Assembly: GCA_964422295.1 (NCBI GenBank)
Contig: CAYRAM010000001.1
Coordinates: forward strand, 135,448 to 199,447
DNA length: 64,000 nt
From: an uncultured Planctomycetia bacterium
GTDB taxonomy: Bacteria > Planctomycetota > UBA8108 > UBA1146
Direction of reading: 5' to 3'
The position numbers and the translations under genes were made by a program. This document shows, piece after piece, positions 5,100-61,756 of the stretch. Every line of letters starts with the position of its first letter. The first letter of the stretch is position 1. The notes under the pieces were generated by a model. It saw only the letters and a list, made by a program, of their open reading frames with translations, had not been told where the DNA came from and did not search any database.

Positions 5100-5103
5100 T
5101 CCA

Positions 5104-6210: not shown

Positions 6211-6380
6211 GAGTGAGACAGGTGACGATGCCATGGGGCGGGTCACCCGTTCTGAAGGAATCTGCGAGGCAGACTTCGGAGCAAATTGGAAAGATTGAAA
6301 CTCGGCCACCTCTGGTGGCTGGAATAGCCAGCGGTCGCAAGGTGAAGCGACCGATTGACAACCAAAGCAAGGAGAGATCG

Positions 6381-8897: not shown

Positions 8898-8931
8898 TCG
8901 AGGCAAACTCCTGGCTGATGTCAGGTAGGAA

Positions 8932-14810: not shown

Positions 14811-14977
14811 GGTGACGTTTCGGAAGTTCGATTGCTTTCGACGTTGTGAAGTTTGCAATTTGCCGATCTCGTCCATTTACCCTTGGAGGGGTGGACGAAA
14901 GAAGAAAGGGTGCTCTCGTGATTGAGACCCATAATCCCCAGAACGGCGCTGTCCCTGCCGTCTCTCGTGGAACCTCC

Positions 14978-27686: not shown

Positions 27687-27773
27687 TGGTACCGGAGGTG
27701 GGACTCGAACCCACAAGACCCGAAGGTCAGCGGATTTTGAATCCGCCGCGTCTGCCAGTTCCGCCACTCCGGC
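27687..27773 (-). tRNA. tRNA-Leu (anticodon CAA), 87 nt with long variable arm, CCA encoded
   Basis: The reverse complement is GCCGGAGTGGCGGAACTGGCAGACGCGGCGGATTCAAAATCCGCTGACCTTCGGGTCTTGTGGGTTCGAGTCCCACCTCCGGTACCA. The anticodon stem is GCGGA/TCCGC and the loop TTCAAAA gives anticodon CAA. Confidence 0.85.
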
Positions 27774-36798: not shown

Positions 36799-39117
36799 TT
36801 ATTTGGTGATGACTCCTTCGGTGCAGACCAACAGTTCCTGGTGTGCTTGCGAGTCCTTTACGAACTTGTTTTCCTCCACATATCCGAGCGCTTTTTTACC
36901 GTCGTTGCACTGGGCATGGGGGTTGGCACCGCGGTCGAGGAGTATTTGAATGATGGCCGGATTGCTGTTGCAGCATGCGGCGACCATCAACGGAGTCATC
37001 CCCTGTTGATTTGTTGATTCAATGTTTGCTCCATGGTCAAGCATCAATGCGAGGATTTCAGGATTGGTGTTTTTGTATGCGGCTATGAGGAGTGGGTCCC
37101 AACCCTCCTGATTGCGAAAGTCCATCTTCGGAAATTTGCTCAAGAGCCGTTTTGTCACTTCCACTGAAGTGTTGCCGTAGGCTGCGATCATCAAGGGGTT
37201 CCAGCCAGATCCATTCAGTAAAGAAGCATCGAGATCGGAGCTGAACAGGAAATCGACGATCTGTGGGTGGTGTGAATTTGCGGCGGCATACATCAGCGCA
37301 GTTTCACCCGCTTCGTCCTGGGCATTCAAATCCGCACCTTTTTCAAGGAGGAGTTCCAGGACACCGGGATGGGACGAGTGGCTCGCTGCCAACATCAATG
37401 CGGTGGCCCCTGAGTGGTTGCGGGCATCGACGTCAGCACCATTGTCGATCAGGGAGTGCAGAACTTCCACGTTGGAATTATGATGCGCAGCGATCATCAG
37501 TGGGGTCCAACCGTCTTCATCCCGAGCATCCATCTTCGCTCCCCTTTTCAGGAGCAGATCGATCAACCATGGCTCGCCAGAGTTGCTGGCCGCATACATC
37601 ATCGGTGTCCAGCCGTTGGCGTCCTTGGTTTCGATATCGACGTCATTTTCCAGAAGCAAGTCGAGGATGGCTGTCACGCCCGTTTTTATCTCTTCTTCTT
37701 TTTGCTGAGCCTCTTGGATTCGTTTTTCTGAGCGCTCTTTGGCTTGGTCGAGGATTTCTTTTGCTTTGTCATCATCCGCGACTTGCGCCTTCAATTGTGC
37801 TCTTTCCAGAGCTCGTTTCGCATTCCTTTGGGCATATTTCACCGTTGGTTTTCTTGTTGTGATCAGCGTAACCAGGATAGGCGGTTCCCCAGCAAGGGTT
37901 GCTAAGTTTGGATCGACGCCACGATCGAGGAGCATCTTTGCAAATTCTCCATGCAACCTGTTGCATGCAACATGAAGGGGGGACCAGCCATTTTTGTTGA
38001 CTGAGGTGGGATCAGCCCCCGATTCGATGAGCGCTATTCCAATTTCAGGATTGACTCGATACTTTGCGGCGAGGTGCAGAGAACTGTATCCCGCTTTTGT
38101 TCCAGCATTGACGTCCGCCCCCGCCTCAAGAAGGATTTTGATAATCGCGGGATCAACATTTTTTGATACTCCCCGCTGCAGAGCCGTAAGATCTTGTCGG
38201 TCAGGGGCGTCGACCTCTGCGCCATGGCTGATGAGGAGACGGATGACTTCCGGATCTGCGGGTCGGTTTTCTTTTTCCGCATTTGGCTCGCGATGAGTTG
38301 CATACCGTTGAAACTTGAAGCGGCCGTTCCGATCACCCAATGCAAGGGTGAGAAGAGGGGAGATTTCACGAGAGCCTTCCTTGTACACCTCATTGACGTT
38401 TGACCCCGATTCAATCAAAGCTTTCACGAGATCAGCCGGGGCTCCGGTCTTGATGGCATGCATGAGAGCGGTGGAGCCTTGGTCGTCCTTTAATGCGACG
38501 GGGGCTCCCCGTTCGATGAGCAATCGTGTGATCTCGCCGGAAGAGTTGTGTTTTGCTGCGAGATTCAAAGGATTTCTACCTGTTTGATACAGCCTGCCAG
38601 CACTGGCACCACCGTCGAGCAAGGTTTTCGTCAGTTCGGGTGAATCCAAAAGGATTGCCTGTTCAATAGGGGTTCTCCGATGATCACCGGGGTCTTCGGT
38701 GTAAAGATGTACGCCATTTTCGATCAGCAATTTTGCGATCTCTGTGCGCGTAGAATCTCTTTCCTCGAAGTCCGGAGCCATGATGAGGTGAATCGCTCGC
38801 CCTCCCGTGGAACTCTTTGTATTCACATTGGCACCCGCCTGGATCAATCGTTCGATCACCTCCGGTTTGTAGGATCTGCTGACGGCAGTCAGTAAGGGGG
38901 TGTATCCGCGCGTGTCTTTGCCGTCAACTTCTGCACCCATCTGTATCAGTCCGGAAACGGCATTGACGTCATTGACGCCGTGAAGGTTCAGGGGGGTCTT
39001 CTTCGAAGGTTGCACGTCTGTACAGCCGATGAGGCAGATCAGTGGCGAAACCTGAAGCAGGGTGCAGAGCAGTGCCCGAACAAAAGTTGACATCGAGAGC
39101 CTCCATTCCGCCTCCAT
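36799..39117 (-). CDS. Ankyrin-repeat lipoprotein (772 aa, about 20 ANK repeats)
   Basis: Signal peptide/lipobox (LICLIGCTD). Repeated ANK consensus occurs throughout (GxTPLMxAAxxGHxxVVxLLLxxGADVNAxDxxGxTAL...). An alternative start lies 8 codons downstream. Confidence 0.9.
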   Translation of the reverse strand: MEAEWRLSMSTFVRALLCTLLQVSPLICLIGCTDVQPSKKTPLNLHGVNDVNAVSGLIQMGAEVDGKDTRGYTPLLTAVSRSYKPEVIERLIQAGANVNTKSSTGGRAIHLIMAPDFEERDSTRTEIAKLLIENGVHLYTEDPGDHRRTPIEQAILLDSPELTKTLLDGGASAGRLYQTGRNPLNLAAKHNSSGEITRLLIERGAPVALKDDQGSTALMHAIKTGAPADLVKALIESGSNVNEVYKEGSREISPLLTLALGDRNGRFKFQRYATHREPNAEKENRPADPEVIRLLISHGAEVDAPDRQDLTALQRGVSKNVDPAIIKILLEAGADVNAGTKAGYSSLHLAAKYRVNPEIGIALIESGADPTSVNKNGWSPLHVACNRLHGEFAKMLLDRGVDPNLATLAGEPPILVTLITTRKPTVKYAQRNAKRALERAQLKAQVADDDKAKEILDQAKERSEKRIQEAQQKEEEIKTGVTAILDLLLENDVDIETKDANGWTPMMYAASNSGEPWLIDLLLKRGAKMDARDEDGWTPLMIAAHHNSNVEVLHSLIDNGADVDARNHSGATALMLAASHSSHPGVLELLLEKGADLNAQDEAGETALMYAAANSHHPQIVDFLFSSDLDASLLNGSGWNPLMIAAYGNTSVEVTKRLLSKFPKMDFRNQEGWDPLLIAAYKNTNPEILALMLDHGANIESTNQQGMTPLMVAACCNSNPAIIQILLDRGANPHAQCNDGKKALGYVEENKFVKDSQAHQELLVCTEGVITK

Positions 39118-39308
39118 CTTAGGCTACGTCCGTTTTCGGGGGAATATCCATGATTCCCCCCTTCAACGAAAGACATCCGGGATGGGGATCGATTCGGACC
39201 GGGTCAGTGGTCATTTGAAACCGCGATGGATGGATCGAAGGAATGCGGAAGTGAAGAAAAAGTGTCCCCCAAGCAACCTGGAGGCCACTTGGGGGCAAGG
39301 CATCAAAT

Positions 39309-39384
39309 TGGTGGACCTGAGGGGGCTCGAACCCCTGACCTTCGCACTGCCAGTGCGACGCTCTCCCAGCTGAGCTACAGGCCC
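39309..39384 (-). tRNA. tRNA-Ala (anticodon GGC), CCA encoded
   Basis: The reverse complement is GGGCCTGTAGCTCAGCTGGGAGAGCGTCGCACTGGCAGTGCGAAGGTCAGGGGTTCGAGCCCCCTCAGGTCCACCA. The G3:U70 alanine identity pair is present and the anticodon loop is CTGGCAG. Confidence 0.9.
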
Positions 39385-39690
39385 ATATTGAGATTGGGGA
39401 AGGGGGATTGCTCCAACGAAATTGGCCTTTGAGGGCTCCCTTGCCCAATCCCAAAGCATAGCCGTGGCGTGTCTTGCGTCAAGGGAACCGATTGTGAGGC
39501 GGCATGGGAGCACCTACGATCACGGGGTGGAGTGGGGATCTGACGGGGGCCTGGGAGGTTTCCGAACTCGGCATCTTCGAATCCCGCGGCGATCGGCAAT
39601 CGGGGAAAATCGCGGCCTGCTCACAGGTGTTGGCAGATCGGTGCCGCCCCCAAAGCGATCCCGAACCAAAGTGATGGAATCGAGGCCCGA

Positions 39691-42438
39691 ATGGGCGTGG
39701 ATCTGAGAGATATCGAAAAACGTTGGCAGGAGCTTTGGCGTGAAAATCCGCTGCCGTCTCCGGTGGTCGCCGATGACGAAGAGCGCGCCAACGCAGCAGC
39801 AGAAGAAGAGGATCGATCGGCGGAGGAGAAGCCGAACTCCGAATCCCATGCCGAGTCGGAACCGGATGCCAGTCCCGACACAAATCCAAATACAAATCCT
39901 GATGGTGGGCAGGAGACGGATGCGATTGTTGGGGAGGAGAACTCTTCAGCAACTTCGCCTGGGGAAGATGCAGGGGGACCTGAAACCGATGACCAGCATC
40001 CGGATTCCGAAGGGGGACCGGATGAGAGTTTGGCTTCGCAGGAAACGGAAGCCGACGGGGAAGATCCCTCCAATCCTGACGGGGAAGATCGCGTCAACCC
40101 CGCTGCGAATGAATCCAAAAAGTCTTCCAGCGAGAGAAGAAAGCGTAGACGGGGACCCCGCACCTTTTATTGCCTCGACATGTTCCCCTATCCATCCCTC
40201 GATGGATTCAGTGTCAGCCAATTGCGTGGGGTCGCCACCAATGACGTCGTCGCCCGGTATCAACAATCCCGTGGCAGAAGAGTACTTCGTCCCATCGGCT
40301 GGGATGCGTTCCAGGCTTCGGTCGAAGAGGAAGCGCGTCAAAATCAGATATCACCCCAGGAAGTGGTTCAACAAGGCATCGTCTTGATGCAGGAGCAGCT
40401 CCGAAGATTTGGTGCGCTGGTTCATTGGGATCATCAGATCGATACCAGCGAACCCGCTGATTACCGCTGGTCGCAGTGGTTGTTTTTGCAACTATTGGCG
40501 AAGGGGTTGGTGCACCAGGATGAACAGGGCTGGAAGGTCGCGATCACCGATTATGCCGAACCTCTCCACTCCGGTTTGAAACACCTCAAGTGGCCTCCAA
40601 GGACCAAGGCATTGCAACGCAATTGGATCGGACGTCGCGAGGGCACCAAGTTGGTGCTCAAAGCCCGATCCGAGTTGTACGACGGCTGGGAGGAGTTGGA
40701 CGTCTTCTGTCGGCGTCTGGAAGCCCTGCCGGATGCGAGTTTTGTGGTTCTCTGCCCCGAACATCCTCTGCTGGCAAAAATTGTCGATCCGATCCAAGAG
40801 GAGGAGGTTCGCCAACTGCAGGAACAAACTACCCAATTGGACGAGCGCGAACGAAAGGCCAAGCGAGCGGATGCGGCCGGTGTCTCCACCGGTGCCTTCG
40901 CCCTAAACCCGGCGACACTGAATACGATTCCAATTTGGGTGAGCAGTTATGTGATGCCGGAAATCCGTTTTGGTGCAATTTTGGGCATGCCGGAAGAGAA
41001 TGAAGCCCACAAAGAGTTCGCAATCCATCATGGAATCCCATTGACGGGGACTGTTTCGGTATCCGGTCGCCGACGTCGTCGTCAAAGTCGACGTCGTTCG
41101 GGTAGCGATGGGGCTGCAGAAAAGAAAGGCCTGCAGGGGTCACTAGGTTCCCGAGGCCTGACAGAACCCATCATCGATTACAAATTGCATGACTGGGTTT
41201 TCGATCGGCAAAGATATTGGGGAGTTCCGATCCCCGTCATCGAGTGCGCTGAGTGCGGATCGATTCCTGTACCTGAGAAGGACCTTCCAGTTTGCTTGCC
41301 TCAAGTTGAACGACTGCCGGAAGTGGGTGAAGGAGAGAATCCTCTCGCAACTTTTGAGGATTGGGTGATCGCTGACTGCCCAGGATGTGGTGCTTCTGCC
41401 CGCCGTTGCACCGACACGATGCCTGACTGGATCGGCTCATGTTGGGGACATCTGCGTTGTCTGGATCCCGGATACGAAGAAGCGATTGCACGCCAGGAGC
41501 ACCTGCAGCGCTGGACTCCGATCAATCTGTGTGTCGGAGGGATCGAACATGCGGAACTTCATCTGATGTACGTTCGATTCATCAGTCATTTCTTGGCAGA
41601 TTTGAAGGTCACTCCCCGAGAGGAGCCGTACCGACGCTTGTTCAATCAGGGGCGAATCAGGTCGCAGGAGAATGAGAATGGGGATGATCCTGAAAATTCG
41701 CGCAGAGGACCTCGGGTGATCGCCAGTGAATACTTTGATCGCTATGGGGCTGATGCACTGCGACTGCATCTTCTCTTTATGGGCCCACCACAAGACCATG
41801 CTGAATGGAGCGATGAAGGTTTGAAGGGGTGTGCCCGGTTTCTTCAGAGGACCTACGAGGGGATCACCTCACGCATCGGGCAGGGAAAATTTGTCAGTCG
41901 CAACGTCCTGGTCGCCAAGCACCGATTGATTCGCAGAGTCACCAGGGCAATTCGCACGTACAGACTGAACAAGGCAGTCAGTGCGTTCATGGAATTTGTC
42001 AAACTTTTGCGCAGTGATGAGTTTTCACCGGAAGAGGTCGACAAGCAGACGCTCAAGACTTTTACGATTTTGTTGGCACCCTTTGCCCCACACATGGCGC
42101 ACGAATTATGGGATCGACTGGGGGAGTCGGGAAAATTGTCCGCTGAACCATGGCCGGAGCACAGCAACGAATTGCTTCAACCGACAGAAATTGAACTGGC
42201 TGTCTTCGTCAACAATTCTCTGGTCGATCGTATTTCGGTGGATTTGGAAGCCACCAAAAATCAGGTTATCGACCAGGTTTTGAAACTCTCCTCGGTACAG
42301 GACCGTACCGGGGGCCGATCTGCAGACCGCGTGATCCATGTTCCAGATCGGTTGCTGAAGTTGATTTATACTCCCCAGGAAGAGGGCAAGGATGACTCCC
42401 ATGAGGAAGAACCCTTTTTTGATCCCAACCTGAAATAG
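39691..42438 (+). CDS. Leucyl-tRNA synthetase paralogue with degenerate catalytic motifs (pseudo-LeuRS)
   Basis: Colinear with bacterial LeuRS: EIE..W..W N-terminus, 'FYCLDMFPYPS', 'RRVLRPIGWDAF', 'ALQRNWIGRREG', 'RQRYWGVPIP', 'CVGGIEHAELHLMYVRF', 'YGADALRLHLLFMGPPQDHAEW'. Three catalytic motifs are replaced: HIGH reads 'FSVSQLRG', KMSKS reads 'RIRSQENENG', and the editing 'GHDQRD' Asp region reads 'MPEENEA'. It also has a ~150-aa acidic insertion and an Arg-rich insertion. Confidence 0.85.
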   Translation: MGVDLRDIEKRWQELWRENPLPSPVVADDEERANAAAEEEDRSAEEKPNSESHAESEPDASPDTNPNTNPDGGQETDAIVGEENSSATSPGEDAGGPETDDQHPDSEGGPDESLASQETEADGEDPSNPDGEDRVNPAANESKKSSSERRKRRRGPRTFYCLDMFPYPSLDGFSVSQLRGVATNDVVARYQQSRGRRVLRPIGWDAFQASVEEEARQNQISPQEVVQQGIVLMQEQLRRFGALVHWDHQIDTSEPADYRWSQWLFLQLLAKGLVHQDEQGWKVAITDYAEPLHSGLKHLKWPPRTKALQRNWIGRREGTKLVLKARSELYDGWEELDVFCRRLEALPDASFVVLCPEHPLLAKIVDPIQEEEVRQLQEQTTQLDERERKAKRADAAGVSTGAFALNPATLNTIPIWVSSYVMPEIRFGAILGMPEENEAHKEFAIHHGIPLTGTVSVSGRRRRRQSRRRSGSDGAAEKKGLQGSLGSRGLTEPIIDYKLHDWVFDRQRYWGVPIPVIECAECGSIPVPEKDLPVCLPQVERLPEVGEGENPLATFEDWVIADCPGCGASARRCTDTMPDWIGSCWGHLRCLDPGYEEAIARQEHLQRWTPINLCVGGIEHAELHLMYVRFISHFLADLKVTPREEPYRRLFNQGRIRSQENENGDDPENSRRGPRVIASEYFDRYGADALRLHLLFMGPPQDHAEWSDEGLKGCARFLQRTYEGITSRIGQGKFVSRNVLVAKHRLIRRVTRAIRTYRLNKAVSAFMEFVKLLRSDEFSPEEVDKQTLKTFTILLAPFAPHMAHELWDRLGESGKLSAEPWPEHSNELLQPTEIELAVFVNNSLVDRISVDLEATKNQVIDQVLKLSSVQDRTGGRSADRVIHVPDRLLKLIYTPQEEGKDDSHEEEPFFDPNLK

Positions 42439-42601
42439 TGGGTCCAGAGCGGTCGCTGACCGGTGTCATCCCTGATTCTTGAATCGTCGGCATTCAGCCG
42501 CCTTTTGCCGTTCCTCGACACTTCATCGTATTCTCATCTGTGGGTTCCATGTACTGGATTTGAGTTTCCAGGTTGGAGTTCGCGTGGAAACGGGGAATTT
42601 G

Positions 42602-43819
42602 ATGAGACTCGACTCGCAGAACAGACTCTGGCCTATGATTCTATCGGTGCTTCTCCTCACCGTGGGCTTGACCGGTCTGTGGAATGAAGATGAGCCGTTC
42701 CAATTTCATGACTCTGCATTAGCAGACAACTTTGTTTCATTGGACCGTTGGGAAATCTCCGGATCACGACAGCGTGATGCGGCTGTGAAGGACTTCCCCG
42801 ATCCAACTCCGATGGAATTAGACCCCATTCCTTCCTGTTCGGTGACTGGGCCCCTTTCGATGCCATTTGATGAAAGGGAGCAGGAACGAAGTCGCATCCT
42901 GCGCGATTTGGATAACCGTAGTGCGACTCTTACGCAGGATCTCAGACGTGAATGGCAAGAATCGCAGAAGGATTTTGAATCCCGAATGCGTGCGATTCTT
43001 GGGGGAGAAGTCGCAACGGTATCTTCATCCACACCGATGGGAACACTCCAGCCCGTTCGCACTGAACACAAAAGCAGTAATCACAAAAAAGTCGAGCAGA
43101 TGGTTTATCCCATCGTCCAGTTGAAGGGCAATGGCACTGTTGGCAGCGGTGTGGTGGTTGCAAATGAGCCCGGTTCCAAGGGTGGTTGGCAAGTCTGGAT
43201 ACTCAGCGCATTTCACGTCGTTGAAGAGGTACGGGATTTCAGGGTTTATGATTCGAAGGTCGTCGACATACACTTTTTCGACCCCCATCTGGGCAGGGTC
43301 TCCGAGGAGACGTTCAGGGGTTGGGAAGTGGTGGCATATCCGGAAGCGGATCTGTCCCTACTCAAGGTCAATCGACCCACTCCGTGGCCGTATCTTGCAC
43401 ATGTCGCCTCAGAAGAAATCTGTGATCAACTGAGTGTATTTGACACCGTCTACGCTGTGGGTTGCCCCCTTGGCAATCAACCGATCCCCACCCGTGGAGA
43501 GATCTCCTCACAGTACAAACCGGTGGGGGATGAGGTTTATTGGATGGTCAGTGCTCCGACCTTTTTCGGCAATTCCGGAGGCGGAATTTTCCTCTCCGAG
43601 AGTGGATTATTGGTTGGAATCAGCAGCATGATCTATACCTATGGCAAAAGGGCTCCGATGGTGGTGCCCCACATGGGTCTCTTCGTTCCCCTGGCCCAGG
43701 TGCGATCCTGGCTGCGTCGCGAAGGTTTTGCCCACCTTCTCGCTGTTTCAGAGGGGATCCCCGTAACCACCTCAGGGGTGGATCAAGACGCTGCCAGAGC
43801 TGATTTCGGGTCATTTTGA
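42602..43819 (+). CDS. Membrane-anchored trypsin-like (S1 family) serine protease
   Basis: TM helix (LWPMILSVLLLTVGLTGLW), 'SAFHVV' His region and 'FFGNSGGGIF' (a variant of the GDSGGP Ser motif). Start set at ATG 42602; the ORF track begins at 42479. Confidence 0.7.
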   Translation: MRLDSQNRLWPMILSVLLLTVGLTGLWNEDEPFQFHDSALADNFVSLDRWEISGSRQRDAAVKDFPDPTPMELDPIPSCSVTGPLSMPFDEREQERSRILRDLDNRSATLTQDLRREWQESQKDFESRMRAILGGEVATVSSSTPMGTLQPVRTEHKSSNHKKVEQMVYPIVQLKGNGTVGSGVVVANEPGSKGGWQVWILSAFHVVEEVRDFRVYDSKVVDIHFFDPHLGRVSEETFRGWEVVAYPEADLSLLKVNRPTPWPYLAHVASEEICDQLSVFDTVYAVGCPLGNQPIPTRGEISSQYKPVGDEVYWMVSAPTFFGNSGGGIFLSESGLLVGISSMIYTYGKRAPMVVPHMGLFVPLAQVRSWLRREGFAHLLAVSEGIPVTTSGVDQDAARADFGSF

Positions 43820-43992: not shown

Positions 43993-45126
43993 ATGAACGC
44001 TGGATCGAATATGACTTGGTTCCCATGTGCCATTCTCTCAGTGCTGTGGACGCTGGCTCTCTGTGGAGAGGTTTTGTCCCAGGATCCCCCCGCTCCTGCC
44101 AAGGAGGTCACCAAGGATGCTTCCGCAACCGATGACGGCGCCGACGGATCGGTCGACGACATTTTGGGTTTGCCGACCAGCGAGCCGGAAGCGGTGGCCG
44201 TGATCGATCGCTACCTTGAATCGGTGGGTGGCAAAAACCGCCTAAAAAGCATTCAGGACCGGGTCGAGCGCTTCCGCAATAAAAAGATAGAGCCTACCAA
44301 CGAGACGATCATGAAGATGTCACGGTTCCTCAAGCGCAATGACGGCGCATTGATGATTCGTGAAGAGTGGCAACTTCCCGGTCTTGGTCTGACCAAGAAC
44401 AACGAGCCTCTCAATTTCGTTCAGGTCTACGACGGTGAGAAAGCCTTCGTCAAAGCGATGGGCGCAGTCTCCCCGTTGGCAGGCAAGACCTTGATCGTGT
44501 TCGTGTGGGACAAGCACATCGATGACTTTTTCTGCACTTTTTCCGATAACGGCTACATCGCCAAGGTGGCCGCGGATGACGTCGTCCTGGGCAAGGCATG
44601 CAAGGTGGTGGAACTGAACTCTTTCGCAGGTAATCAACGCATGTTGTTTGCCTTCAGCGATGAAGACGGACTCTTGCTGCGCAAGACGTGGCAAGAGGGT
44701 CAGGCACCTGCAGTGATCACAAAAGAAGTCTTCTACGAAGATTACACCCGGATCCGCTTCAGCGACGATCGCAATCAGTGGATCAAAACTCCCATCTCCA
44801 AGAAGATTTTTGAAGACGGGGAACTCAGCCTTGAAGTCAACTTTGATGAAATCACCCTCAATGCGGGGATTTCCTCCAACATCTTTGGTCGTCCTGACGG
44901 ACGATCCTTTGAAGAGGTTCGCCGCGAGCGAGAAGCTGCCAGAGCCAAAGAGAAAGAAGGCGTTGCAGGGGGCGATGCAGCCGAAGGCGATGAAAAGAAG
45001 CCGGTCTGGGAGAAGCCGAAACCAAAGCCGAAGCCTGTGTGGGAAAAACCCAAACCAAAACCTGCGCCGAAGCCGGCTCCAAAACCAGAGCCGACTCCGG
45101 AGCCCACACCTGAACCCAAGCCTTAG
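43993..45126 (+). CDS. Secreted protein with C-terminal (K/E)P-rich repeat tail
   Basis: Has a signal peptide (CAILSVLWTLALCGEVLSQ) and a C-terminus of 'KPVWEKPKPKPKPVWEKPKPKPAPKPAPKPEPTPEPTPEPKP'. Confidence 0.5.
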   Translation: MNAGSNMTWFPCAILSVLWTLALCGEVLSQDPPAPAKEVTKDASATDDGADGSVDDILGLPTSEPEAVAVIDRYLESVGGKNRLKSIQDRVERFRNKKIEPTNETIMKMSRFLKRNDGALMIREEWQLPGLGLTKNNEPLNFVQVYDGEKAFVKAMGAVSPLAGKTLIVFVWDKHIDDFFCTFSDNGYIAKVAADDVVLGKACKVVELNSFAGNQRMLFAFSDEDGLLLRKTWQEGQAPAVITKEVFYEDYTRIRFSDDRNQWIKTPISKKIFEDGELSLEVNFDEITLNAGISSNIFGRPDGRSFEEVRREREAARAKEKEGVAGGDAAEGDEKKPVWEKPKPKPKPVWEKPKPKPAPKPAPKPEPTPEPTPEPKP

Positions 45127-45223: not shown

Positions 45224-46303
45224 TTATCCCGGGTTGGGGCTGTTGTTTTTCAGTACGAGTTGACCACAAGCTCCATCAATATCGAGACCGCGGCTGCGTC
45301 TTGCAGTGACCTGTCCCTCATAGTGGTGGCATATCTCTTCTCTGAATCTCTCGACAGTTTCTTCATCCGCTGCTTGGAAGGGGGCACCTTCGAAGGGGTG
45401 AAACGGCAATAGATTGATGTGGCCATGGCACTTGCGTGCAAAAGCAGCCAATGCCAAGGCCTCGTGGACATCGTCGTTCACTCCTGGCAGAACGACATAT
45501 TCGAGGCTGATACGACGAACCTTGTTGCGCAATCTGGAGAGCGTGTCGAGCAGATCGGAGAGGGAGTGCTTCGACTGAATGGGGACGATTCGCGCACGGG
45601 TTTCCTCGACGGCACTGTGAAGGCTGACTGCCAAGCGGATCTGCGGATGTTCTTCAATGAGAGGGGGAATCTTTGGCACGATGCCGACGGTAGACACCGT
45701 GATGCGCCGGGGGCTCATGCCAAATCCCATCGGCGATGTCAGCCACTGCAACGACCGTGAGACGGAAGCAAAATTGTGCAACGGTTCACCCATGCCCATG
45801 AAGACCACTTGGGTGACTCCGACTTTCCCCTCCGAGCGGGTGAAATGGTCCACGGCATGCCATTGTCCGACAATCTCACTGGAAGAGAGATTACGGGTCA
45901 GTTTCATCGTTCCGGTCGCACAGAAGGTGCAGCCGGCTGCGCAACCCACCTGACTGGAGACGCACAGGGTTCCCCTGTCCTGGGTCGGGATCCAAACAGC
46001 CTCGACAGATTTTCCGTCTGCGAGATCAAAAAGGAATTTCAGGGTTCCGTCACTGGATCTCAGTACCGTGTTGATCGAGATCGGTGGTGCCAGGATATCG
46101 GCCGCCAGTTCTTCTCGAATCATCTTGGGAATAGTCGACATTTCTGAGGCCAACAAAGTTCTTTGTCCGATGAGATGCTCATGAATTTGACGTCCCCGAT
46201 ATGCGGGAAGATTTCTATGGCTACACCACGAGGAGATTCGCGCTGCGGCTACTTCTGGATCGCCATCGAGCAGATGTTTCTCTGGATTTCGCTGGGAGTT
46301 CAT
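45224..46303 (-). CDS. rlmN: 23S rRNA (A2503-C2)/tRNA methyltransferase RlmN (radical SAM)
   Basis: 'CVSSQVGCAAGCTFCATGTMKL' is the CX3CX2C motif, and 'GMGEPLHNF' plus a conserved C-terminal Cys region are present. Confidence 0.9.
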   Translation of the reverse strand: MNSQRNPEKHLLDGDPEVAAARISSWCSHRNLPAYRGRQIHEHLIGQRTLLASEMSTIPKMIREELAADILAPPISINTVLRSSDGTLKFLFDLADGKSVEAVWIPTQDRGTLCVSSQVGCAAGCTFCATGTMKLTRNLSSSEIVGQWHAVDHFTRSEGKVGVTQVVFMGMGEPLHNFASVSRSLQWLTSPMGFGMSPRRITVSTVGIVPKIPPLIEEHPQIRLAVSLHSAVEETRARIVPIQSKHSLSDLLDTLSRLRNKVRRISLEYVVLPGVNDDVHEALALAAFARKCHGHINLLPFHPFEGAPFQAADEETVERFREEICHHYEGQVTARRSRGLDIDGACGQLVLKNNSPNPG

Positions 46304-55399: not shown

Positions 55400-57181
55400 G
55401 TGTTGAGAACACACACCTGCGGTCAGTTGCGAGTCGAAAATGTTGGACAAGAAATCTGTTTGGTCGGTTGGATCGACGCCGTCCGTGACCATGGAGGCCT
55501 GAAGTTCGTCGATCTTCGTGACCGTTATGGAAGGGTGCAGGTGCAGATCTCCCCTGAATCCATCGGAGGGAATGCCCTCGAAACTCTTCGATTTGACCAG
55601 GTGCTCAGGGTATCCGGTGAGGTGAAGGAGCGCCCGGATGGGATGCGTAACCCCAAATTGGCAACGGGTGACGTCGAGCTGATCGCTGGCAGTGCAGAAG
55701 TGATCGGTGAATGCCCACCGCTGCCTTTCAATCCTGACTCAGGGGACCAAGTCAATGATGAGTTGCGCTTCAAGTACCGATTCATCGACATGCGAAGGGA
55801 TGAGGTCCAGAGAAGATTTCGCCTTCGTAGCGACATGCAGTTTGCCATGCGCCAATTTTTGCACCATCAGCAGTTTATCGATCTCGAAACGCCGATGTTG
55901 ACCAAGAGCACTCCCGAGGGGGCACGGGATTTTCTCGTACCGAGTCGCCTTAATCCGGGAGAATTTTATGCTCTTCCACAATCGCCCCAAATCTTCAAAC
56001 AGATCTTCATGATCTCCGGTTTCGACCGCTACATGCAGGTGGTGAGGTGTTTCCGGGATGAAGATCTGCGCGCAGATCGGCAGCCGGAGTTCACTCAACT
56101 CGATCTTGAGATGGCATGCATTGATGAAAACGACATCATCGGTCTCGTTGAAGGGCTAATGCAACACGTGGTTCGCGAAGTCCTGGGCAAGGAAATCCCA
56201 GGGCCCTTCCCTCGTCTGAGCTACGAGGAGGCGACTCTCACCTATGGCAGCGACTCCCCGGACCTGCGTAGCGACTTGAGAATTCAGGATTTTTCTGATT
56301 TAGCGGAGGCGCTGGAATTCAAGGTCTTCAGCGGAGCGGTCGAAGCGGGTGGTTGCGTTCGCGGCTTGAAGATTCCTGGAGGTGGAGGGTGGAGTCGCAA
56401 GGAGATCGAATCCCTTGAGCCGATCGTGACCCAACAAGGTGCGGGAGGATTAGCCTGGTTCAAGATGACCGAAGAGGGCCCGGCGGGGCCTGTATCCCGG
56501 TTCCTTGCCGGAGAAGCCGGAAGCACACTGATCTCTCGTTTGGAGATGGAAACGGGGGATTTGGCCTGCTTTATTGCCGATGCTGAGACACGTGTAGTCG
56601 TCAATTCCCTGGGCCAATTGCGCAAGGAGTTGGCCCTGCGCCTCGGGCATATTGACCCCGAAGATCTTCAGTTTTGTTGGGTAGAGGAATTTCCCCTCTT
56701 TGATGAGGATGAAGAAACGGGTAACCCGACACCCTGTCACCACCCGTTTACCTGTCCTCACCCCGACGATATTGATCACCTGGACAACCGTCCTCTGGAA
56801 GTTCGAGCTCGAGCCTACGACCTGGTCCTGAATGGCTTTGAGGTTGCAGGCGGAAGTATCCGTATTCACCAGAGAGAACTCCAGGAGCGGGTCTTTGCGG
56901 CGATCGGCATTTCACCAGAGGAGGCGGAATCCAAGTTCAGTTTTCTGCTGGAAGCACTCAAGTACGGTGCACCACCCCATGGCGGCATCGCCTTTGGCCT
57001 CGATCGCCTGGCGATGCTCCTCTGTGGACTCGACACGATTCGTGAGGTCATCGCCTTCCCGAAGACCCAAAAGGGGACATGCCAATTGACGGATGCTCCT
57101 GACGCAGTCGGTGCGGAGCAGTTAGCGGAGGTGGGGTTGCAGGAGGCCCCACGGGAGTCCTCGAAAGACGAAGGAAATTGA
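55400..57181 (+). CDS. aspS: Aspartyl-tRNA synthetase
   Basis: 'LRTHTCGQL...GQEICLVGWI...RDHGGLKFVDLRDRYG', 'FRDEDLRADRQPEFTQLDLEMA', 'GGSIRIH' and 'GAPPHGGIAFGLDRLAML' are present. Confidence 0.95.
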   Translation: MLRTHTCGQLRVENVGQEICLVGWIDAVRDHGGLKFVDLRDRYGRVQVQISPESIGGNALETLRFDQVLRVSGEVKERPDGMRNPKLATGDVELIAGSAEVIGECPPLPFNPDSGDQVNDELRFKYRFIDMRRDEVQRRFRLRSDMQFAMRQFLHHQQFIDLETPMLTKSTPEGARDFLVPSRLNPGEFYALPQSPQIFKQIFMISGFDRYMQVVRCFRDEDLRADRQPEFTQLDLEMACIDENDIIGLVEGLMQHVVREVLGKEIPGPFPRLSYEEATLTYGSDSPDLRSDLRIQDFSDLAEALEFKVFSGAVEAGGCVRGLKIPGGGGWSRKEIESLEPIVTQQGAGGLAWFKMTEEGPAGPVSRFLAGEAGSTLISRLEMETGDLACFIADAETRVVVNSLGQLRKELALRLGHIDPEDLQFCWVEEFPLFDEDEETGNPTPCHHPFTCPHPDDIDHLDNRPLEVRARAYDLVLNGFEVAGGSIRIHQRELQERVFAAIGISPEEAESKFSFLLEALKYGAPPHGGIAFGLDRLAMLLCGLDTIREVIAFPKTQKGTCQLTDAPDAVGAEQLAEVGLQEAPRESSKDEGN

Positions 57182-58298: not shown

Positions 58299-58655
58299 AT
58301 GCCACGCGTACGCTATGGCGTCGCTCGCCACCGCAAACAGAAGCGGATCCTTAAAAAAGCCAAGGGTTTTTTCGGAGCTGGCAGTCGCCAGTACAGAACT
58401 GCCCGTCAATCCATCATTCGTTCTGAAGTCTTTGCAACTCGTGATCGAAGGAACAGAAAGCGAATGTATCGTCGACTGTGGATCACCCGGATTTCCGCTG
58501 CTTGCCAGGGAACCGGAATCTCATACAGTCGGTTTATCCATGGTTTGAAGAGGGCCAATGTGGATCTGGATCGAAAAATGATCTCCGAATTGGCAATTCG
58601 TAATCCAGAGGCGTTTACTTCACTTGTGGGAGTCGCCAGAGGCGCCCTGTCATGA
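58299..58655 (+). CDS. rplT: 50S ribosomal protein L20
   Basis: 'MPRVRYGVARHRKQKRILKKAKGFFGA.SR.YR.A.Q......FA.RDRRNRKR.YRRLWI.RI.AA....GISYS.FI.GLK.A.V.LDRK' is strong L20 identity. Confidence 0.95.
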   Translation: MPRVRYGVARHRKQKRILKKAKGFFGAGSRQYRTARQSIIRSEVFATRDRRNRKRMYRRLWITRISAACQGTGISYSRFIHGLKRANVDLDRKMISELAIRNPEAFTSLVGVARGALS

Positions 58656-59656
58656 GTCAAAACGGGTCCTTTTCGGATCTGGATGCCATCGAGATAGATG
58701 CTCTTGCGGCAATCGAAGCTGCAGGAGACGCGGCCGCACTTGACCAAGTCAGGATTCAGGTCCTCGGCAAAAAGGGATCTCTCAAGCAGATATTACGAAA
58801 TCTGGGTGGATTGACACCCGATGAACGGCCACTTTTCGGTGCTCGTGCAAACGTCGTAAAGGATAAGGTCCAGCAAGCACTCGAGACGGCCCGAGAAAAA
58901 TTGGGATCCCCCAAAGGTGCAAATGTCAGTGCGGATACGGGAGCGGACCTGACTCTTCCTGGATTGCAACCGGAAGTTGGCAGCCGCCATCCTGTGAGCC
59001 TGGTTTCTGCCCGCATGATTCGCATCTTCGCCAGCCTCGGATTCGAGGTCGCAGATGGTCCCGAAGTCGAAGATGAATGGCACAACTTCACGGGTCTCAA
59101 TATTCCCGCAGACCACATCGCCCGGGATCCCGCAGAAAACTTTTATCTTGAGGATGATCTGCTGATGCGCAGTCAAACCTCAACGGTACAGGTTCGCGTG
59201 ATGGAAAACACACCTCCACCCCTGCGGATTATTGCTCCAGGAAAGGTCTTTCGGCCTGACACGGTGGATGCCACTCATTCCTACATGTTCCATCAATTGG
59301 AAGGGCTCGTTGTCGATGAGGGCATCGCATTCGGCCATTTGAAATCGACATTGCTGACCTTCTTTCAGCAATTGTTGCAGGATGAAAACATGAAACTTCG
59401 ATTACGTCCGTCCTTTTTCCCATTCACTGAACCGAGTGCTGAAGTCGATCTGCATTGGCGCGGTGGTTGGATGGAGATGGGCGGGTGTGGCATGGTGGAT
59501 CCGAATGTGCTTGAAGCTGTTGGAATCGATCCCGAGAAGTACACAGGCTTCGCTTTTGGCCTGGGAATCGAGCGCGTCACGATGGCTTCCTACAACATTC
59601 CGGATATTCGTTACTTCACAGAAAATGACGTCAGGTTCCTCGGTCAGTTTTCCTGA
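58652..59656 (+). CDS. pheS: Phenylalanyl-tRNA synthetase alpha subunit
   Basis: 'FHQLEGLVVDEGI', 'FFPFTEPSAEVD' and 'GCGMVDPNVL' are present. It overlaps rplT by 4 nt. Confidence 0.95.
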   Translation: MSQNGSFSDLDAIEIDALAAIEAAGDAAALDQVRIQVLGKKGSLKQILRNLGGLTPDERPLFGARANVVKDKVQQALETAREKLGSPKGANVSADTGADLTLPGLQPEVGSRHPVSLVSARMIRIFASLGFEVADGPEVEDEWHNFTGLNIPADHIARDPAENFYLEDDLLMRSQTSTVQVRVMENTPPPLRIIAPGKVFRPDTVDATHSYMFHQLEGLVVDEGIAFGHLKSTLLTFFQQLLQDENMKLRLRPSFFPFTEPSAEVDLHWRGGWMEMGGCGMVDPNVLEAVGIDPEKYTGFAFGLGIERVTMASYNIPDIRYFTENDVRFLGQFS

Positions 59657-59692: not shown

Positions 59693-61756
59693 ATGAAGGT
59701 ATCTGTCGATTGGCTGCGAGATCATGTTGATTTCGATCTGGAGATCAATGATTTGGCCTATCGTTTGACCATGTGTGGCCTCAATTGTGAAGGCATCGAA
59801 GAGCATGGAACGGACCATGTCCTCGAATTGGAAGTGACGTCGAATCGACCAGACCACTTGGGTCATCGTGGCGTCGCCAGAGATCTTGCGTGTCTCTTGG
59901 GGGTTCCTCTCAAACCATTGGCCATCGATTTTGAAACAGTAGACACCAATGCCTCAGGTCTGAGACTGGATGAGTTGGTATCAGTCGTCGTCGACGATGT
60001 AGATCGATGCGGACGGTACACCACCAGAGTCGCAGAAGATCTGAAGGTGACCTCAAGCCCCGATTGGCTGCAACAACGACTTTTGGCGATTGGACTGCGT
60101 CCGATCAACGTGGTCGTCGATCTCACAAATTACGTATTGATGGAATTGGGCCAACCTCTACACGCATTTGATCTCGATCGCCTGGAGGGTTCTGAAGTGC
60201 TCATCCGTCGGGCTTTACGAGCTGAAAAATTTACCGCAATCGATGGTTCCGACCATGAATTGGAGACAGGGGATCTGGTCATCGCAGATCAGAGGGGAGC
60301 AGCCGCTCTCGCTGGTGTTATGGGTGGATCGCGTACGGAGGTTCACCAGGACACGAGCAGGATTCTCCTTGAGTCCGCATGGTTTGAACCGGTTCCGGTT
60401 CGGGAGACATCCCGTCGCATGCTGCTTTCATCCGATTCCTCATATCGTTTCGAACGAAGGGTCGATGTAGAGGCATGTGAACTTGCTTCCAGACGCTTCA
60501 TGCACCTTCTTGCCAAGGAGACGGGGTGCACCATTCTCAGTGGTTGTCTTGAAGTGGTTCGCGACGGTCTGCTGGAGATTCCTGCTGCAGTTGCGATCCG
60601 GCCTGACAGGGCTTCCAGCATTCTCGGGGATCAGATCCCTGAAGGCGAGATTCGCACGATTCTGGAAGCACTCGGTTTCACATCTGAATCGGATTCCGGA
60701 GATGAGGGACCTTGGGTCGCTCCCTCTTGGCGGGTGGATTGTGGCCGGGAAGCAGATCTAATCGAGGAGATCGGCCGAATTCGTGGACTCGATCAGATGG
60801 ACGATCGACGCATGGAGGTTCGCGCTGTCCCTGAGGATCCTCGCGCAGGTCGGGTCGAGCGGGTCCATGAGTATCTCGTCGGAACAGGCCACCACGAATC
60901 GATGACATTCTCGTTTGGCGTCGCCGAGAGTGAATTTCAAGCTTTGGAGAACTGGTGGAATCTTGGTACGCCATGGGTGGTGAGAAACCCGGTTCGTTCC
61001 AACGAAGGGACTCTGAGAAGAAGTTTGGTGCCCGGACTCTTGAATAGTGTTCGCGGAAATCGCCTGCACGGCGTCGATGAAGTGCGTCTCTTTGAAGTCG
61101 GAACGGTCTTCCATCGCAAAGAGGGATTGGATCGACCTGCGGAAAAACTTCATGTGGCGTGGATCCATAGTCAGGCGCAACCGGAGAAGGGTACTGGGCC
61201 ATACCGGGAGGCCAGGGGGATCGCAGACGGGATTCTCAGCCTGCTCAGAGTCGGTGAGTCGGGACCCTTGTCCCCATCTTGGTCACCTGTAGGAGAGACG
61301 GGTGGGTTCGTAACCGGGACTACAGCGGCTCTCAGTTTCTCCAGCGATCAGATTGGCCTCGTCGGCTCTGTAATTCTGGAAGGGGTGCCGGGAGAAACCT
61401 GGTATGGAGAGTTGGATCTGGGATACCTCCTCGATCATGCGCGTCAGGAAGTAAGGTTTAGTGACTTCTCCAGACATCCGGTGATTACCCGTGACTTGAA
61501 CTTCGTTGTTTCGGAAGAAGTGCTCTGGAGAGATCTCTCTTCTGAGATTGAGGCTGCGAGTCTTGAAAATCTTGAATCAAGCAACTTTATCGACATGTAT
61601 CGCGGCAAGCAGGTGGGAGAGGGGCGAAAAAGCGTTACCTTTTCACTGATTTTCCGTGCTGCGGACCGGACATTGACCCATGAAGAGGTGGATGAATCGG
61701 TCAATGGTCTCGTCAGTCGATTGGGAGATCGATTACAGGCGGAACTCCGCCGTTAG
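59693..61756 (+). CDS. pheT: Phenylalanyl-tRNA synthetase beta subunit (short form lacking the N-terminal EMAP-like tRNA-binding domain)
   Basis: 'MKVSVDWLRDHV...TMCGLNCEGIE' runs directly into 'LELEVTSNRPDHLGHRGVARD'. This skips ~110 aa relative to the E. coli PheT B2 domain. The B3/4, B5 and FDX-ACB-like regions are present. Confidence 0.9.
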   Translation: MKVSVDWLRDHVDFDLEINDLAYRLTMCGLNCEGIEEHGTDHVLELEVTSNRPDHLGHRGVARDLACLLGVPLKPLAIDFETVDTNASGLRLDELVSVVVDDVDRCGRYTTRVAEDLKVTSSPDWLQQRLLAIGLRPINVVVDLTNYVLMELGQPLHAFDLDRLEGSEVLIRRALRAEKFTAIDGSDHELETGDLVIADQRGAAALAGVMGGSRTEVHQDTSRILLESAWFEPVPVRETSRRMLLSSDSSYRFERRVDVEACELASRRFMHLLAKETGCTILSGCLEVVRDGLLEIPAAVAIRPDRASSILGDQIPEGEIRTILEALGFTSESDSGDEGPWVAPSWRVDCGREADLIEEIGRIRGLDQMDDRRMEVRAVPEDPRAGRVERVHEYLVGTGHHESMTFSFGVAESEFQALENWWNLGTPWVVRNPVRSNEGTLRRSLVPGLLNSVRGNRLHGVDEVRLFEVGTVFHRKEGLDRPAEKLHVAWIHSQAQPEKGTGPYREARGIADGILSLLRVGESGPLSPSWSPVGETGGFVTGTTAALSFSSDQIGLVGSVILEGVPGETWYGELDLGYLLDHARQEVRFSDFSRHPVITRDLNFVVSEEVLWRDLSSEIEAASLENLESSNFIDMYRGKQVGEGRKSVTFSLIFRAADRTLTHEEVDESVNGLVSRLGDRLQAELRR

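Follow-up and report, generated by a model that had tools for sequence, protein, structure and literature searches.

Why would a bacterium maintain an aminoacyl-tRNA synthetase that appears to have lost the residues needed for aminoacylation? The question is raised by a 915-aa open reading frame (ORF) in a 64,000-nucleotide stretch of DNA from an uncultured Planctomycetia bacterium (assembly GCA_964422295.1, contig CAYRAM010000001.1, positions 135,448 to 199,447), which is referred to here as the window. The initial annotation of the window described this ORF as a leucyl-tRNA synthetase (LeuRS) paralogue with destroyed catalytic motifs. The analysis presented here favours, with a probability of about 0.6, a LeuRS-derived non-catalytic pseudoenzyme that is kept for RNA binding, probably of tRNA, on the basis of the domains that it retains and of the charges that it has gained. 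Synthetase-derived proteins that have taken up new jobs are a recurring theme.

A LeuRS fold and its former active sites

The 915-aa protein is homologous to LeuRS far beyond chance. The bacterial LeuRS model TIGR00396 (leuS_bact) matched it with an E-value of 2e-170 and 568.8 bits, which marginally passes the cut-off of 548.4, and the LeuRS of Thermus thermophilus aligned with it in three blocks (E=1e-128). Pfam recognised the LeuRS editing domain (PF13603) and the class I anticodon-binding domain (PF08264), together with PF00133 and PF09334; the class I catalytic domain was detected as fragments. An AlphaFold2 (AF2) model built from a 102-sequence alignment reached a pLDDT of 86.2 and a pTM of 0.82, and all of its 50 top matches in the PDB were LeuRS, with TM scores of 0.70-0.78 in Foldseek to the LeuRS-tRNA complexes of Thermus, E. 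coli, Neisseria and Agrobacterium (AgnB2). The domain order was also kept, namely a Rossmann core with the editing domain CP1 inserted, an anticodon-binding helical domain (ABD) and a C-terminal domain (CTD). The colinearity with bacterial LeuRS that had been proposed for this ORF was thus recovered by profile, by pairwise alignment and by predicted fold. The disordered parts of the model are an acidic linker (aa 53-137), an Arg-rich segment (about aa 453-480), the loop that once carried KMSKS (about aa 661-670) and the C-terminal tail.

The catalytic residues have fared differently from the fold. When the family to which the protein belongs was compared with the 231 positions whose conservation among 72 canonical LeuRS is 90% or more, 125 positions were kept and 38 were replaced, and the replaced positions include every catalytic residue of both the synthetic and the editing site. 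In the synthetic site, the residue-level alignment showed that LHVGH of the HIGH region has become FSVSQ (aa 173-177). The same change, made up of H174S, G176N/S and H177Q and turning HVGH into SV(N/S)Q, was found in 29/29 family members. KMSKSKGN has become PENSRRGP (aa 667-674), with K667, M668, K670, S671 and N674 gone, and none of the 29 members carries KMSKS, the equivalent position reading xxxx(H/R)RG(P/D) across the family. This loop is variable in sequence, evolves under a dN/dS of 0.23 and was modelled with a pLDDT of 64. The initial annotation had recognised the replacement of HIGH and the loss of KMSKS, and both stand; the string that it assigned to KMSKS, GRIRSQENENG, corresponds to the QGM strand and the loop that precedes the KMSKS position, the true equivalent being located about ten residues downstream. 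In CP1, alignments agreed with the claim that the TRPDT and GHDQRD regions had been replaced. The first now reads CRRLEA and the second EENEAH in place of AHDERD, and YGTGA has become IRFGA. The individual substitutions are T341R, T345A, G426R, T427F and D440H, so that a His occupies the position of the editing Asp. An opened editing pocket of the T252A type that would hold leucyl-A76 was considered and rejected, given that the position equivalent to T252 varies across the family. Taken together, these replacements support the ablation of both sites, and the protein would, judging from its sequence, have lost both activities.

The protein has kept several elements: FPYPS, the Asp of GWD, GGIEHxxLHLxY, RQRYWGxPIP and the ZN2 cysteines. 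The residues of the leucine pocket are invariant in the main clade of the family and in its relative P0249. Six positions of the former active site have acquired new residues that are invariant in the main clade (Ser/Thr174, Gln177, Arg200, Cys614, Arg655 and His693). The Cys-cluster module ZN1 has been deleted in the sub-clade of the window protein and is kept in the deeper members P0016-P0031. Loss of the large leucine-specific domain was rejected as a special feature of the protein, because the nearest canonical LeuRS have the same short loop.

Variation in the HIGH region was also met in other LeuRS. P0349 (880 aa), which came from the representative search, reads LSVGH at HIGH and has intact KMSKS and editing motifs, so that Ser takes the place of the first His of HIGH in an enzyme that apparently works. 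Two LeuRS from 'Planctomycetales' metagenome-assembled genomes (MAGs), at positions 9905-12328 of locus L059 and 6999-9389 of locus L060, have HVGN/HIGN for HxGH and GFDAFGMH for GWDAFGLP and are otherwise canonical. A homologue search seeded with the L059 enzyme indicated that this lineage is isolated, its next relatives being only 59% identical. Two further canonical LeuRS homologues of about 950 aa, P0081 and P0099, carry a NUDIX domain (PF00293).

Distribution, selection and three sub-lineages

A search of 5.8 billion proteins revealed a sharp step in identity: about 33 relatives at 43-100%, followed by canonical LeuRS at 36-37%. All the relatives came from MAGs with Planctomycet* names or from unnamed metagenome contigs, and none was present in UniRef. 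An exhaustive phmmer search of 1.84 billion representatives returned just two full-length family clusters at 50% identity, plus the intermediate P0249. When one genome of each GTDB species was scanned, 30 contigs from 29 assemblies were found to carry the family, and except for three they are named as Planctomycetes; the other labels found among the family assemblies were 'uncultured bacterium' (twice), 'bacterium' (once) and Bacillota (once). The habitats were mostly the marine water column, with some sediments or vents, and none of the 29 assemblies represents a cultured organism. Family members occur in, among others, PAIH01 (NAT2), JAYZTT01, JABHOG01, JAAZXB01, CAZSDP01, DCAA01, NHDG01, GCA_016928275.1 and the bin with contig Ga0310124_10000196. 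The locus with the Bacillota label (L029, QNYK01000062.1, 'Bacillota bacterium') is of the Planctomycetota type and 88% identical to the orthologue of a Planctomycetota MAG, which probably reflects a wrong taxonomic label or a mistake in binning.

The conservation of the gene across these genomes bears on the possibility that it is a decaying pseudogene or an artefact of assembly or sequencing, which could be suspected from the loss of all catalytic signatures. All 28 orthologous coding sequences (CDS) that were extracted were intact, and they share the same substitutions in independent assemblies. The ATG start is preceded by a GAGG Shine-Dalgarno sequence that is conserved, together with the N-terminus, in eight orthologous loci, and the AF2 model is confident. 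Further, dN/dS calculated by the Nei-Gojobori method over unsaturated pairs (dS 0.15-0.54) was 0.05-0.18. The probability of decay or artefact is therefore negligible, and this explanation was rejected on the strength of the intact orthologues and the purifying selection. Selection on the gene, and its conservation (intact orthologues in about 30 MAGs) and synteny, are checks that the initial annotation had suggested, and they came out in favour of a maintained gene. Such strong purifying selection indicates that the gene has been repurposed and is not decaying; with both sites ablated, this agrees with the repurposed pseudo-synthetase first proposed. The corrected distance between the family and canonical LeuRS was 1.155, compared with 0.68 among canonical LeuRS of many phyla, which points to a long stem branch, after which constraint set in again. 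No sister group among canonical LeuRS emerged from the distances or from a neighbour-joining tree, both of which set the family apart on a long branch at an equal distance from every canonical LeuRS.

Two deeper forms of the protein, found at equivalent positions in the genome, are informative about which parts have been given up. P0249 is a singleton from a Planctomycetes MAG (GCA_016928275.1, JAFGLC010000420.1; positions 7719-10217 of locus L084) and is annotated at NCBI as leucine--tRNA ligase. Its HIGH region reads FRLEQ, KMSKS is gone and QGM is GRGR, and the CP1 motifs are nearly canonical ('VTRPEL' and 'AHSRRD'). It has neither the Arg-rich insert nor the acidic linker and scores 721.8 bits with TIGR00396. 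The loci L103-L105 encode the most extreme form. In the L103 ORF (1067 aa, positions 5081-8284), FPYPS, HIGH, GWD, RQRYWGxPIP and GGIEH..LHLLY are all unrecognisable, and the second half of the catalytic core has given way to a segment of about 300 aa rich in Asp and Glu. The domains that remain are CP1 (PF13603, 124 bits), ABD and CTD, and the TIGR00396 score, 335.8 bits, is below the cut-off. Two other, independent contigs show the same architecture, and the ABD-CTD region evolves under a dN/dS of 0.14. The three sub-lineages are positional orthologues, all with the synthetic site lost, and they share features that canonical LeuRS lack: the motifs G(K/R)FVS(R/K)xVLVxKHRLI, EEVDxxTL and WPx(Y/F/H)SxEL(L/V)xP, and the change of NGK.R to Nxx(I/V)xDR in the CTD. 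Read from their sequences, the sub-lineages would form an evolutionary series in which first the synthetic site died, then the editing site died and the Arg-rich arm appeared, and finally the catalytic core was discarded.

This series also bears on whether the gene could be a divergent LeuRS that still works, possibly the only one of its cell, with residues of the Arg200 and Arg655 type replacing HIGH and KMSKS in stabilising the transition state. The score just over the equivalog cut-off, the location in a housekeeping block with tRNA genes, rlmN, aspS and pheST, and the natural HIGH variants of otherwise canonical enzymes (SVGH in P0349, HVGN in L059 and L060) are compatible with such an enzyme, and no second LeuRS was seen in the window or within ±10 kb of 29 family loci. 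Contrary to this, HIGH has lost its two His and KMSKS its two Lys, the editing site is gone, the former KMSKS loop evolves nearly six times faster than the remaining core, and the canonical LeuRS P0034 scores 1088.8 bits with TIGR00396, of which the 568.8 bits of the window protein are about half. In addition, the syntenic L103 orthologue has no catalytic core whatsoever, and we regard a working LeuRS as highly improbable. The L103-type protein cannot be the LeuRS of its cell, and since LeuRS is essential, that lineage must hold another; the simplest reading of three positional orthologues with a dead synthetic site is that a functional LeuRS has existed elsewhere in the genome since their common ancestor. 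The coexistence of the gene with a canonical leuS, and hence its status as a paralogue, is deduced from this core-less orthologue. Two origins are possible: the gene may be a duplicate of a host gene, or it may be the ancestral leuS whose place was taken by a xenologue. The second origin fits the housekeeping neighbourhood, with tRNA-Ala, tRNA-Leu(CAA), rlmN, aspS, pheST and, in L084, proS.

Predicted RNA-binding surfaces and role

In real LeuRS, the ABD, the CTD and CP1 are the domains that hold the tRNA. The ABD is where the family has been most distinctly rebuilt: 23 of its 154 positions are family-specific invariants, compared with 3-7% of the positions in the Rossmann half, CP1, the second half of the core and the CTD. 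Its net charge is +0.3, as against -8.9 in canonical LeuRS, a gain of about nine positive charges. The CTD keeps its fold, with strands and helices at aa 833-892 of the AF2 model. A second gain of charge is found at the hinge between CP1 and the core, where the Arg-rich insert has a net charge of +7.2 compared with -3.0 in canonical LeuRS (a gain of about ten). Every member scored (23/30) has this arm, with 12-18 Lys and Arg per 53-68 aa. The initial annotation had noticed the Arg-rich stretch and placed it in CP1 as an insertion; it lies at the C-terminal edge of CP1 and partly substitutes the canonical 'G.M.NSG.F.G' hairpin, so it is not a pure insertion. Likewise, the acidic segment reported after the N-terminal helix is present, its extent being aa 25-155 rather than about 150 aa, with pLDDT below 50 over aa 53-137 and a basic RRKRRRGPR patch at its C-terminal end. 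Across the family this linker measures 26-168 aa, with a net charge between -38 and +5 that is negative in 22 of the 23 members scored. The statement that the tRNA-binding elements are retained holds for the folds of the ABD and CTD, and does not hold for ZN1, which is deleted, for NGK.R, which is changed, or for the surface of the ABD with its 23 family-specific invariants.

The retention of ABD, CTD and CP1, the invariants of the ABD and the gains of charge favour an RNA-binding pseudo-synthetase. The core of its predicted function would be formed by the ABD and CTD, with CP1, and the retained leucine-pocket residues fit a binding role as well as the ABD and CTD folds do. The protein would dock RNA, most likely tRNA, with tRNA-Leu as the default candidate, on the old platform that ABD, CTD and CP1 provide, with the new basic surface and the Arg-rich arm strengthening the hold. 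The RNA would be held without turnover, and the protein could thus act as a binder, a sequestering factor or a sensor. In the main clade, the leucine pocket lined by Arg200, Arg655 and Cys614 may render binding dependent on a ligand. The acidic linker may behave as an intramolecular mimic of nucleic acid that competes with RNA for the basic surfaces and is thereby autoinhibitory. Housekeeping charging would be the task of a separate canonical LeuRS.

Several observations weigh against an RNA-binding pseudo-synthetase. In the main clade, constraint is strongest in the dead Rossmann half (dN/dS 0.027) and not in the ABD, which hints that the old pocket still does something specific beyond clamping RNA. 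The change in NGK.R and the loss of ZN1 affect the interface with tRNA-Leu of the canonical enzyme, and the ligand may therefore differ from tRNA-Leu. Envelope-type genes are conserved as neighbours, which a simple clamp model leaves unexplained, and a periplasmic-type protease and the secreted protein p377 in this position lend no support to a role linked to translation. Finally, a canonical leuS was located for no genome that carries the family: the scan of GTDB species gave the family itself and unrelated canonical LeuRS. The only canonical Planctomycete LeuRS in that scan were L059 and L060, which belong to other genomes and share no synteny with the family loci.

A different use of the same surfaces would be to hold proteins. 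The gene product could serve other proteins as a non-catalytic scaffold or partner, and might for instance be a subunit that regulates the canonical LeuRS or neighbouring synthetases. This would be comparable with the archaeal association of LeuRS, ProRS and LysRS, with HisZ or with the beta subunit of PheRS. The archaeal LeuRS-ProRS complex is a precedent for partnering between synthetases. In the deepest sub-lineage proS follows 45 bp downstream, aspS belongs to the same block in L084, L103 and the window, and a disordered acidic linker and an Arg-rich arm are typical interaction modules. The adjacency of proS was, however, found in L084 alone and neither in the window nor in the other 29 loci, the gain of charge in the ABD and the insert indicates a polyanionic ligand such as RNA, and the genomic context points to no partner. 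A role as a protein partner is consequently considered unlikely.

The constraint on the former active site could also reflect new chemistry that requires no ATP, such as a leucyl transferase that depends on Leu-tRNA, or an enzyme that acts on another anionic substrate in the remodelled pocket. Cyclodipeptide synthases, which arose from class I synthetases of the TyrRS/TrpRS type and lost the ATP motifs, illustrate such a path. In the main clade, the ATP motifs are lost, the leucine pocket is kept (FPYPS, GWD, GGIEH..LHL.Y) in the most constrained region of the protein, and the invariant new residues include Ser/Thr174 and Cys614 next to Gln177, Arg200, Arg655 and His693. The L103 lineage has lost the pocket and is yet under selection, an observation that denies the pocket the part of carrier of the common function, and the neighbourhood holds no gene related to an acceptor. 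New chemistry is thus quite unlikely. Its specific form, an ATP-independent leucyl transferase using Leu-tRNA-Leu, in which the rebuilt ABD and the Arg-rich arm would hold the charged tRNA, is suggested by analogy and appears more doubtful still.

A further alternative is a sensor or decoy of leucine, or of a ligand resembling leucyl-adenylate, in which binding of the small molecule would be essential and binding of RNA incidental. Eukaryotic LeuRS acts as a leucine sensor, and neither the main clade nor P0249 shows any variation in the pocket residues. The idea of a leucine sensor, raised in the initial annotation, is weakened as a function common to the family, given that L103 has kept its ABD and CTD and lost the pocket. 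Moreover, the family-specific constraint is densest in the ABD, far from the pocket, and no antibiotic or biosynthetic gene cluster accompanies the gene, which speaks against a decoy conferring immunity. Sensing as the primary role is accordingly regarded as very remote.

The RNA-binding pseudo-synthetase can be compared with a small number of known proteins. Canonical LeuRS (T. thermophilus 2BTE/2V0C, E. coli 4AQ7/3ZJT) shares its domain order, fold, leucine pocket and ZN2 cysteines and differs by having HIGH, KMSKS, the T-rich motif, GTG, the editing Asp and ZN1. HisZ, the PheRS beta subunit and the HisRS-like domain of GCN2 have kept a synthetase fold for binding or regulation and lost charging. 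They derive from class II parents and have known partners (HisG, PheRS alpha and a kinase domain, respectively), whereas the Planctomycetota protein has a class I parent, is full-length and stands alone. AgnB2 LeuRS and MupA/MupB IleRS resemble it as second, divergent class Ia synthetase genes, and AgnB2 (5AH5) is among its structural matches, but they are active, have intact motifs and lie beside toxin or antibiotic genes. In the family, by comparison with such self-resistance duplicates, the motifs are lost and the neighbours are a protease, a secreted protein, rlmN, dprA and an ankyrin protein. A review of synthetase duplications published in 2022 includes HisZ among synthetase-derived proteins and covers only two LeuRS cases, LeuRS-I of Sulfolobaceae and LeuRS2 of Halobacteria (PMC9437257). 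LeuRS-I forms leucyl-adenylate and does not charge tRNA; its CP1 is disrupted and its C-terminal domain acidic, and it has been proposed to play a tRNA-dependent role outside protein synthesis (PMC9437257, summarising Weitzel et al. 2020). Like the Planctomycetota protein, it is a second LeuRS-type protein that does not aminoacylate and combines a disrupted CP1 with an unusual acidic region. However, it is archaeal-type, its synthetic site works and its acidic region is C-terminal, whereas the Planctomycetota family is bacterial-type, has lost HIGH and KMSKS, carries its acidic region at the N-terminus and has an Arg-rich insertion. In NmLeuRS2 of Natrialba magadii, one Lys of KMSKS is changed to Ser; the enzyme is still weakly active, shows no detectable editing and keeps its affinity for tRNA-Leu, and a tRNA-dependent non-translational role was suggested for it (PMC4005665). 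It is likewise a LeuRS duplicate, with activation and charging greatly impaired, but it has kept HIGH and most of KMSKS, while the Planctomycetota protein has no catalytic signature and a rebuilt ABD surface.

Synthetase-derived pseudoenzymes are a known kind, and what is new here is the combination of a bacterial-type protein, two erased sites, a rebuilt ABD, an Arg-rich arm, an acidic linker and a core-less lineage. A full-text literature search found no description of a LeuRS-like pseudo-synthetase from Planctomycetes or other bacteria. If the proposed reading is true, this would be the first full-length bacterial relative of LeuRS with both active sites erased and conserved across a deep clade. 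The natural series of forms would single out the ABD and CTD as the parts on which the new function depends, and the family would offer a concrete system in which to see what a synthetase scaffold is useful for once the chemistry is gone. There is also a practical consequence. The main family scores 569-673 bits with TIGR00396, and the dead members P0001, P0009, P0021, P0033 and P0249 score 569-722 bits, all above the cut-off of 548.4. Automatic annotation as LeuRS is thus possible, dead proteins can be mistaken for the housekeeping enzyme, and public records use both 'leucine--tRNA ligase' and 'class I tRNA ligase family protein' as names for members of the family. TIGR00396 is part of widely used single-copy marker sets, so that the dead members may be counted as a marker, and marker-based estimates of completeness, contamination and phylogeny for these Planctomycetota may be distorted.

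Gene neighbourhood

The features of the gene and of its surroundings are collected in Table 1.

Table 1. Features of the LeuRS-like gene and its neighbours, in positions of the window, with dN/dS where calculated
Feature	Position	Strand	dN/dS	Basis or remark
LeuRS-like CDS (predicted pseudo-synthetase), 915 aa	39691..42438	+		ORF; TIGR00396; T. thermophilus LeuRS; AF2/Foldseek; 28 intact orthologous CDS
Conserved N-terminal helix DLRDIEKRWQELWRENPLPSP, aa 4-24	39700..39762	+	0.08	aligns with canonical IExKWQxxW helix
Acidic Asp/Glu/Ser/Pro-rich disordered linker, aa 25-155	39763..40155	+	0.43	net charge -27, pI 4.05
N-terminal Rossmann half (with dead HIGH)			0.027	
Degenerate HIGH region GFSVSQLRG (canonical GLHVGHWRG), aa 172-180	40204..40230	+		alignment, family-wide
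RPIGWDAF	40288..40311	+		leucine alpha-amino-binding Asp kept; His of 'LHPMGWD' replaced by invariant Arg200
ZN1 (CxxC...CxxC) deletion site, ~37 aa gone	40513..40548	+		T. thermophilus residues 151-189 unmatched
CP1 editing-domain fold without hydrolytic residues	40618..41046	+	0.066	PF13603 104.9 bits; alignments
CRRLEA, formerly TTRPDT (aa 340-345), within CP1	40708-40725	+		alignment
IRFGAILGMPEENEAHKEFA, formerly YGTGA...AHDERD, within CP1	40963-41022	+		alignment
Arg-rich low-complexity insertion SGRRRRRQSRRRSGS at CP1/core hinge (aa 458-472)	41062..41106	+	0.12	pLDDT 56-62
NLCVGGIEHAELHLMYVRF, leucine/adenosine pocket strand-helix kept	41524..41580	+		Tyr replaced by invariant Cys614
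Second core half			0.073	
QGM changed to QGR (invariant Arg655), then former KMSKS loop	41641..41718	+	0.23 (loop)	alignment; PENSRRGPRV replaces KMSKSKGN
ABD	41719..42180	+	0.040	PF08264
ABD family signature GKFVSRNVLVAKHRLIRRV...LNKAVS	41884-41997	+		common to P0249 and L103 ORF
ABD family signature EEVDKQTLKTF	42031-42063	+		common to P0249 and L103 ORF
CTD (tRNA-elbow) fold; VNGK.R changed to VNNSLVDR	42181..42375	+	0.073	alignment
tRNA-Ala(GGC), divergent neighbour	39309..39384	-		promoter-like site 39455-39482; terminator-like hairpin 39266-39295
Trypsin-like (HtrA/DegP-like) peptidase, downstream	42479..43819	+		PF13365; syntenic in 27/29 loci, L084 and L103
p377, 377-aa secreted protein, Pro-Lys repeat tail	43993..45126	+		syntenic in 26/29 loci
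rlmN (dual-specificity rRNA/tRNA methyltransferase)	45224..46303	-		TIGR00048 311.6 bits vs cut-off 290; syntenic
aspS, pheS, pheT	55400-57181, 58652-59656, 59693-61756			ordinary

The order of genes at the locus is tRNA-Ala(GGC), divergently transcribed, the LeuRS-like gene, the trypsin-like peptidase, p377, rlmN on the opposite strand and, further on, dprA, and it is kept in 26-27 of the 29 family loci. The divergent transcription from tRNA-Ala(GGC) that had been noted at the outset was confirmed, the tRNA gene lying on the minus strand. It was found directly upstream of the LeuRS-like gene in all 12 loci tested, including L084 (7476-7551) and L103 (4932-5007), and on the same strand in L018 only. 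In six of these 12 loci tRNA-Leu(CAA) lies 4-6 kb upstream; in the window it is at 27687-27773. A regulatory RNA upstream of the LeuRS-like gene was considered and rejected: Rfam showed two tRNAs only, and the conserved intergenic block is accounted for by the promoter of tRNA-Ala that lies within it.

p377 has no match in Pfam or NCBIfam and ends in a tail of Pro-Lys/Pro-Glu repeats (KPKPKPKPVWEKPKPKPAPKP...). When it was used as bait in a single pattern-based scan of JGI metagenomes, 21 loci were recovered, and the LeuRS-like gene preceded the protease in 17 of the 17 that had upstream sequence. In L084 the standard order is kept, but a proS of the archaeal/eukaryote type has been inserted behind the LeuRS-like gene, and aspS lies at a greater distance. 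The other synthetase genes of the window, aspS (770.9 bits, cut-off 443), pheS and pheT, all pass their cut-offs and are ordinary, which indicates that the divergence is specific to the LeuRS-like gene. The gene is accordingly situated in a neighbourhood rich in translation genes whose other members are normal, and the conserved protease, p377 and rlmN give only a weak indication of its function.

Two further observations concern the rest of the window. Between the conserved upstream block and tRNA-Ala, a gene has been inserted (36799-39117, minus strand) that encodes a 772-aa protein in which ankyrin repeats take up nearly the whole length and the N-terminus resembles that of a lipoprotein, and that is absent from most orthologous loci. 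Positions 2293-25618 hold two similar tandem gene sets, each comprising a secretin fused to TPR repeats (6213-8897 and 14846-17590), preceded by a PilM-like gene, and large TPR proteins, which looks like a duplicated pilus or secretion cluster.

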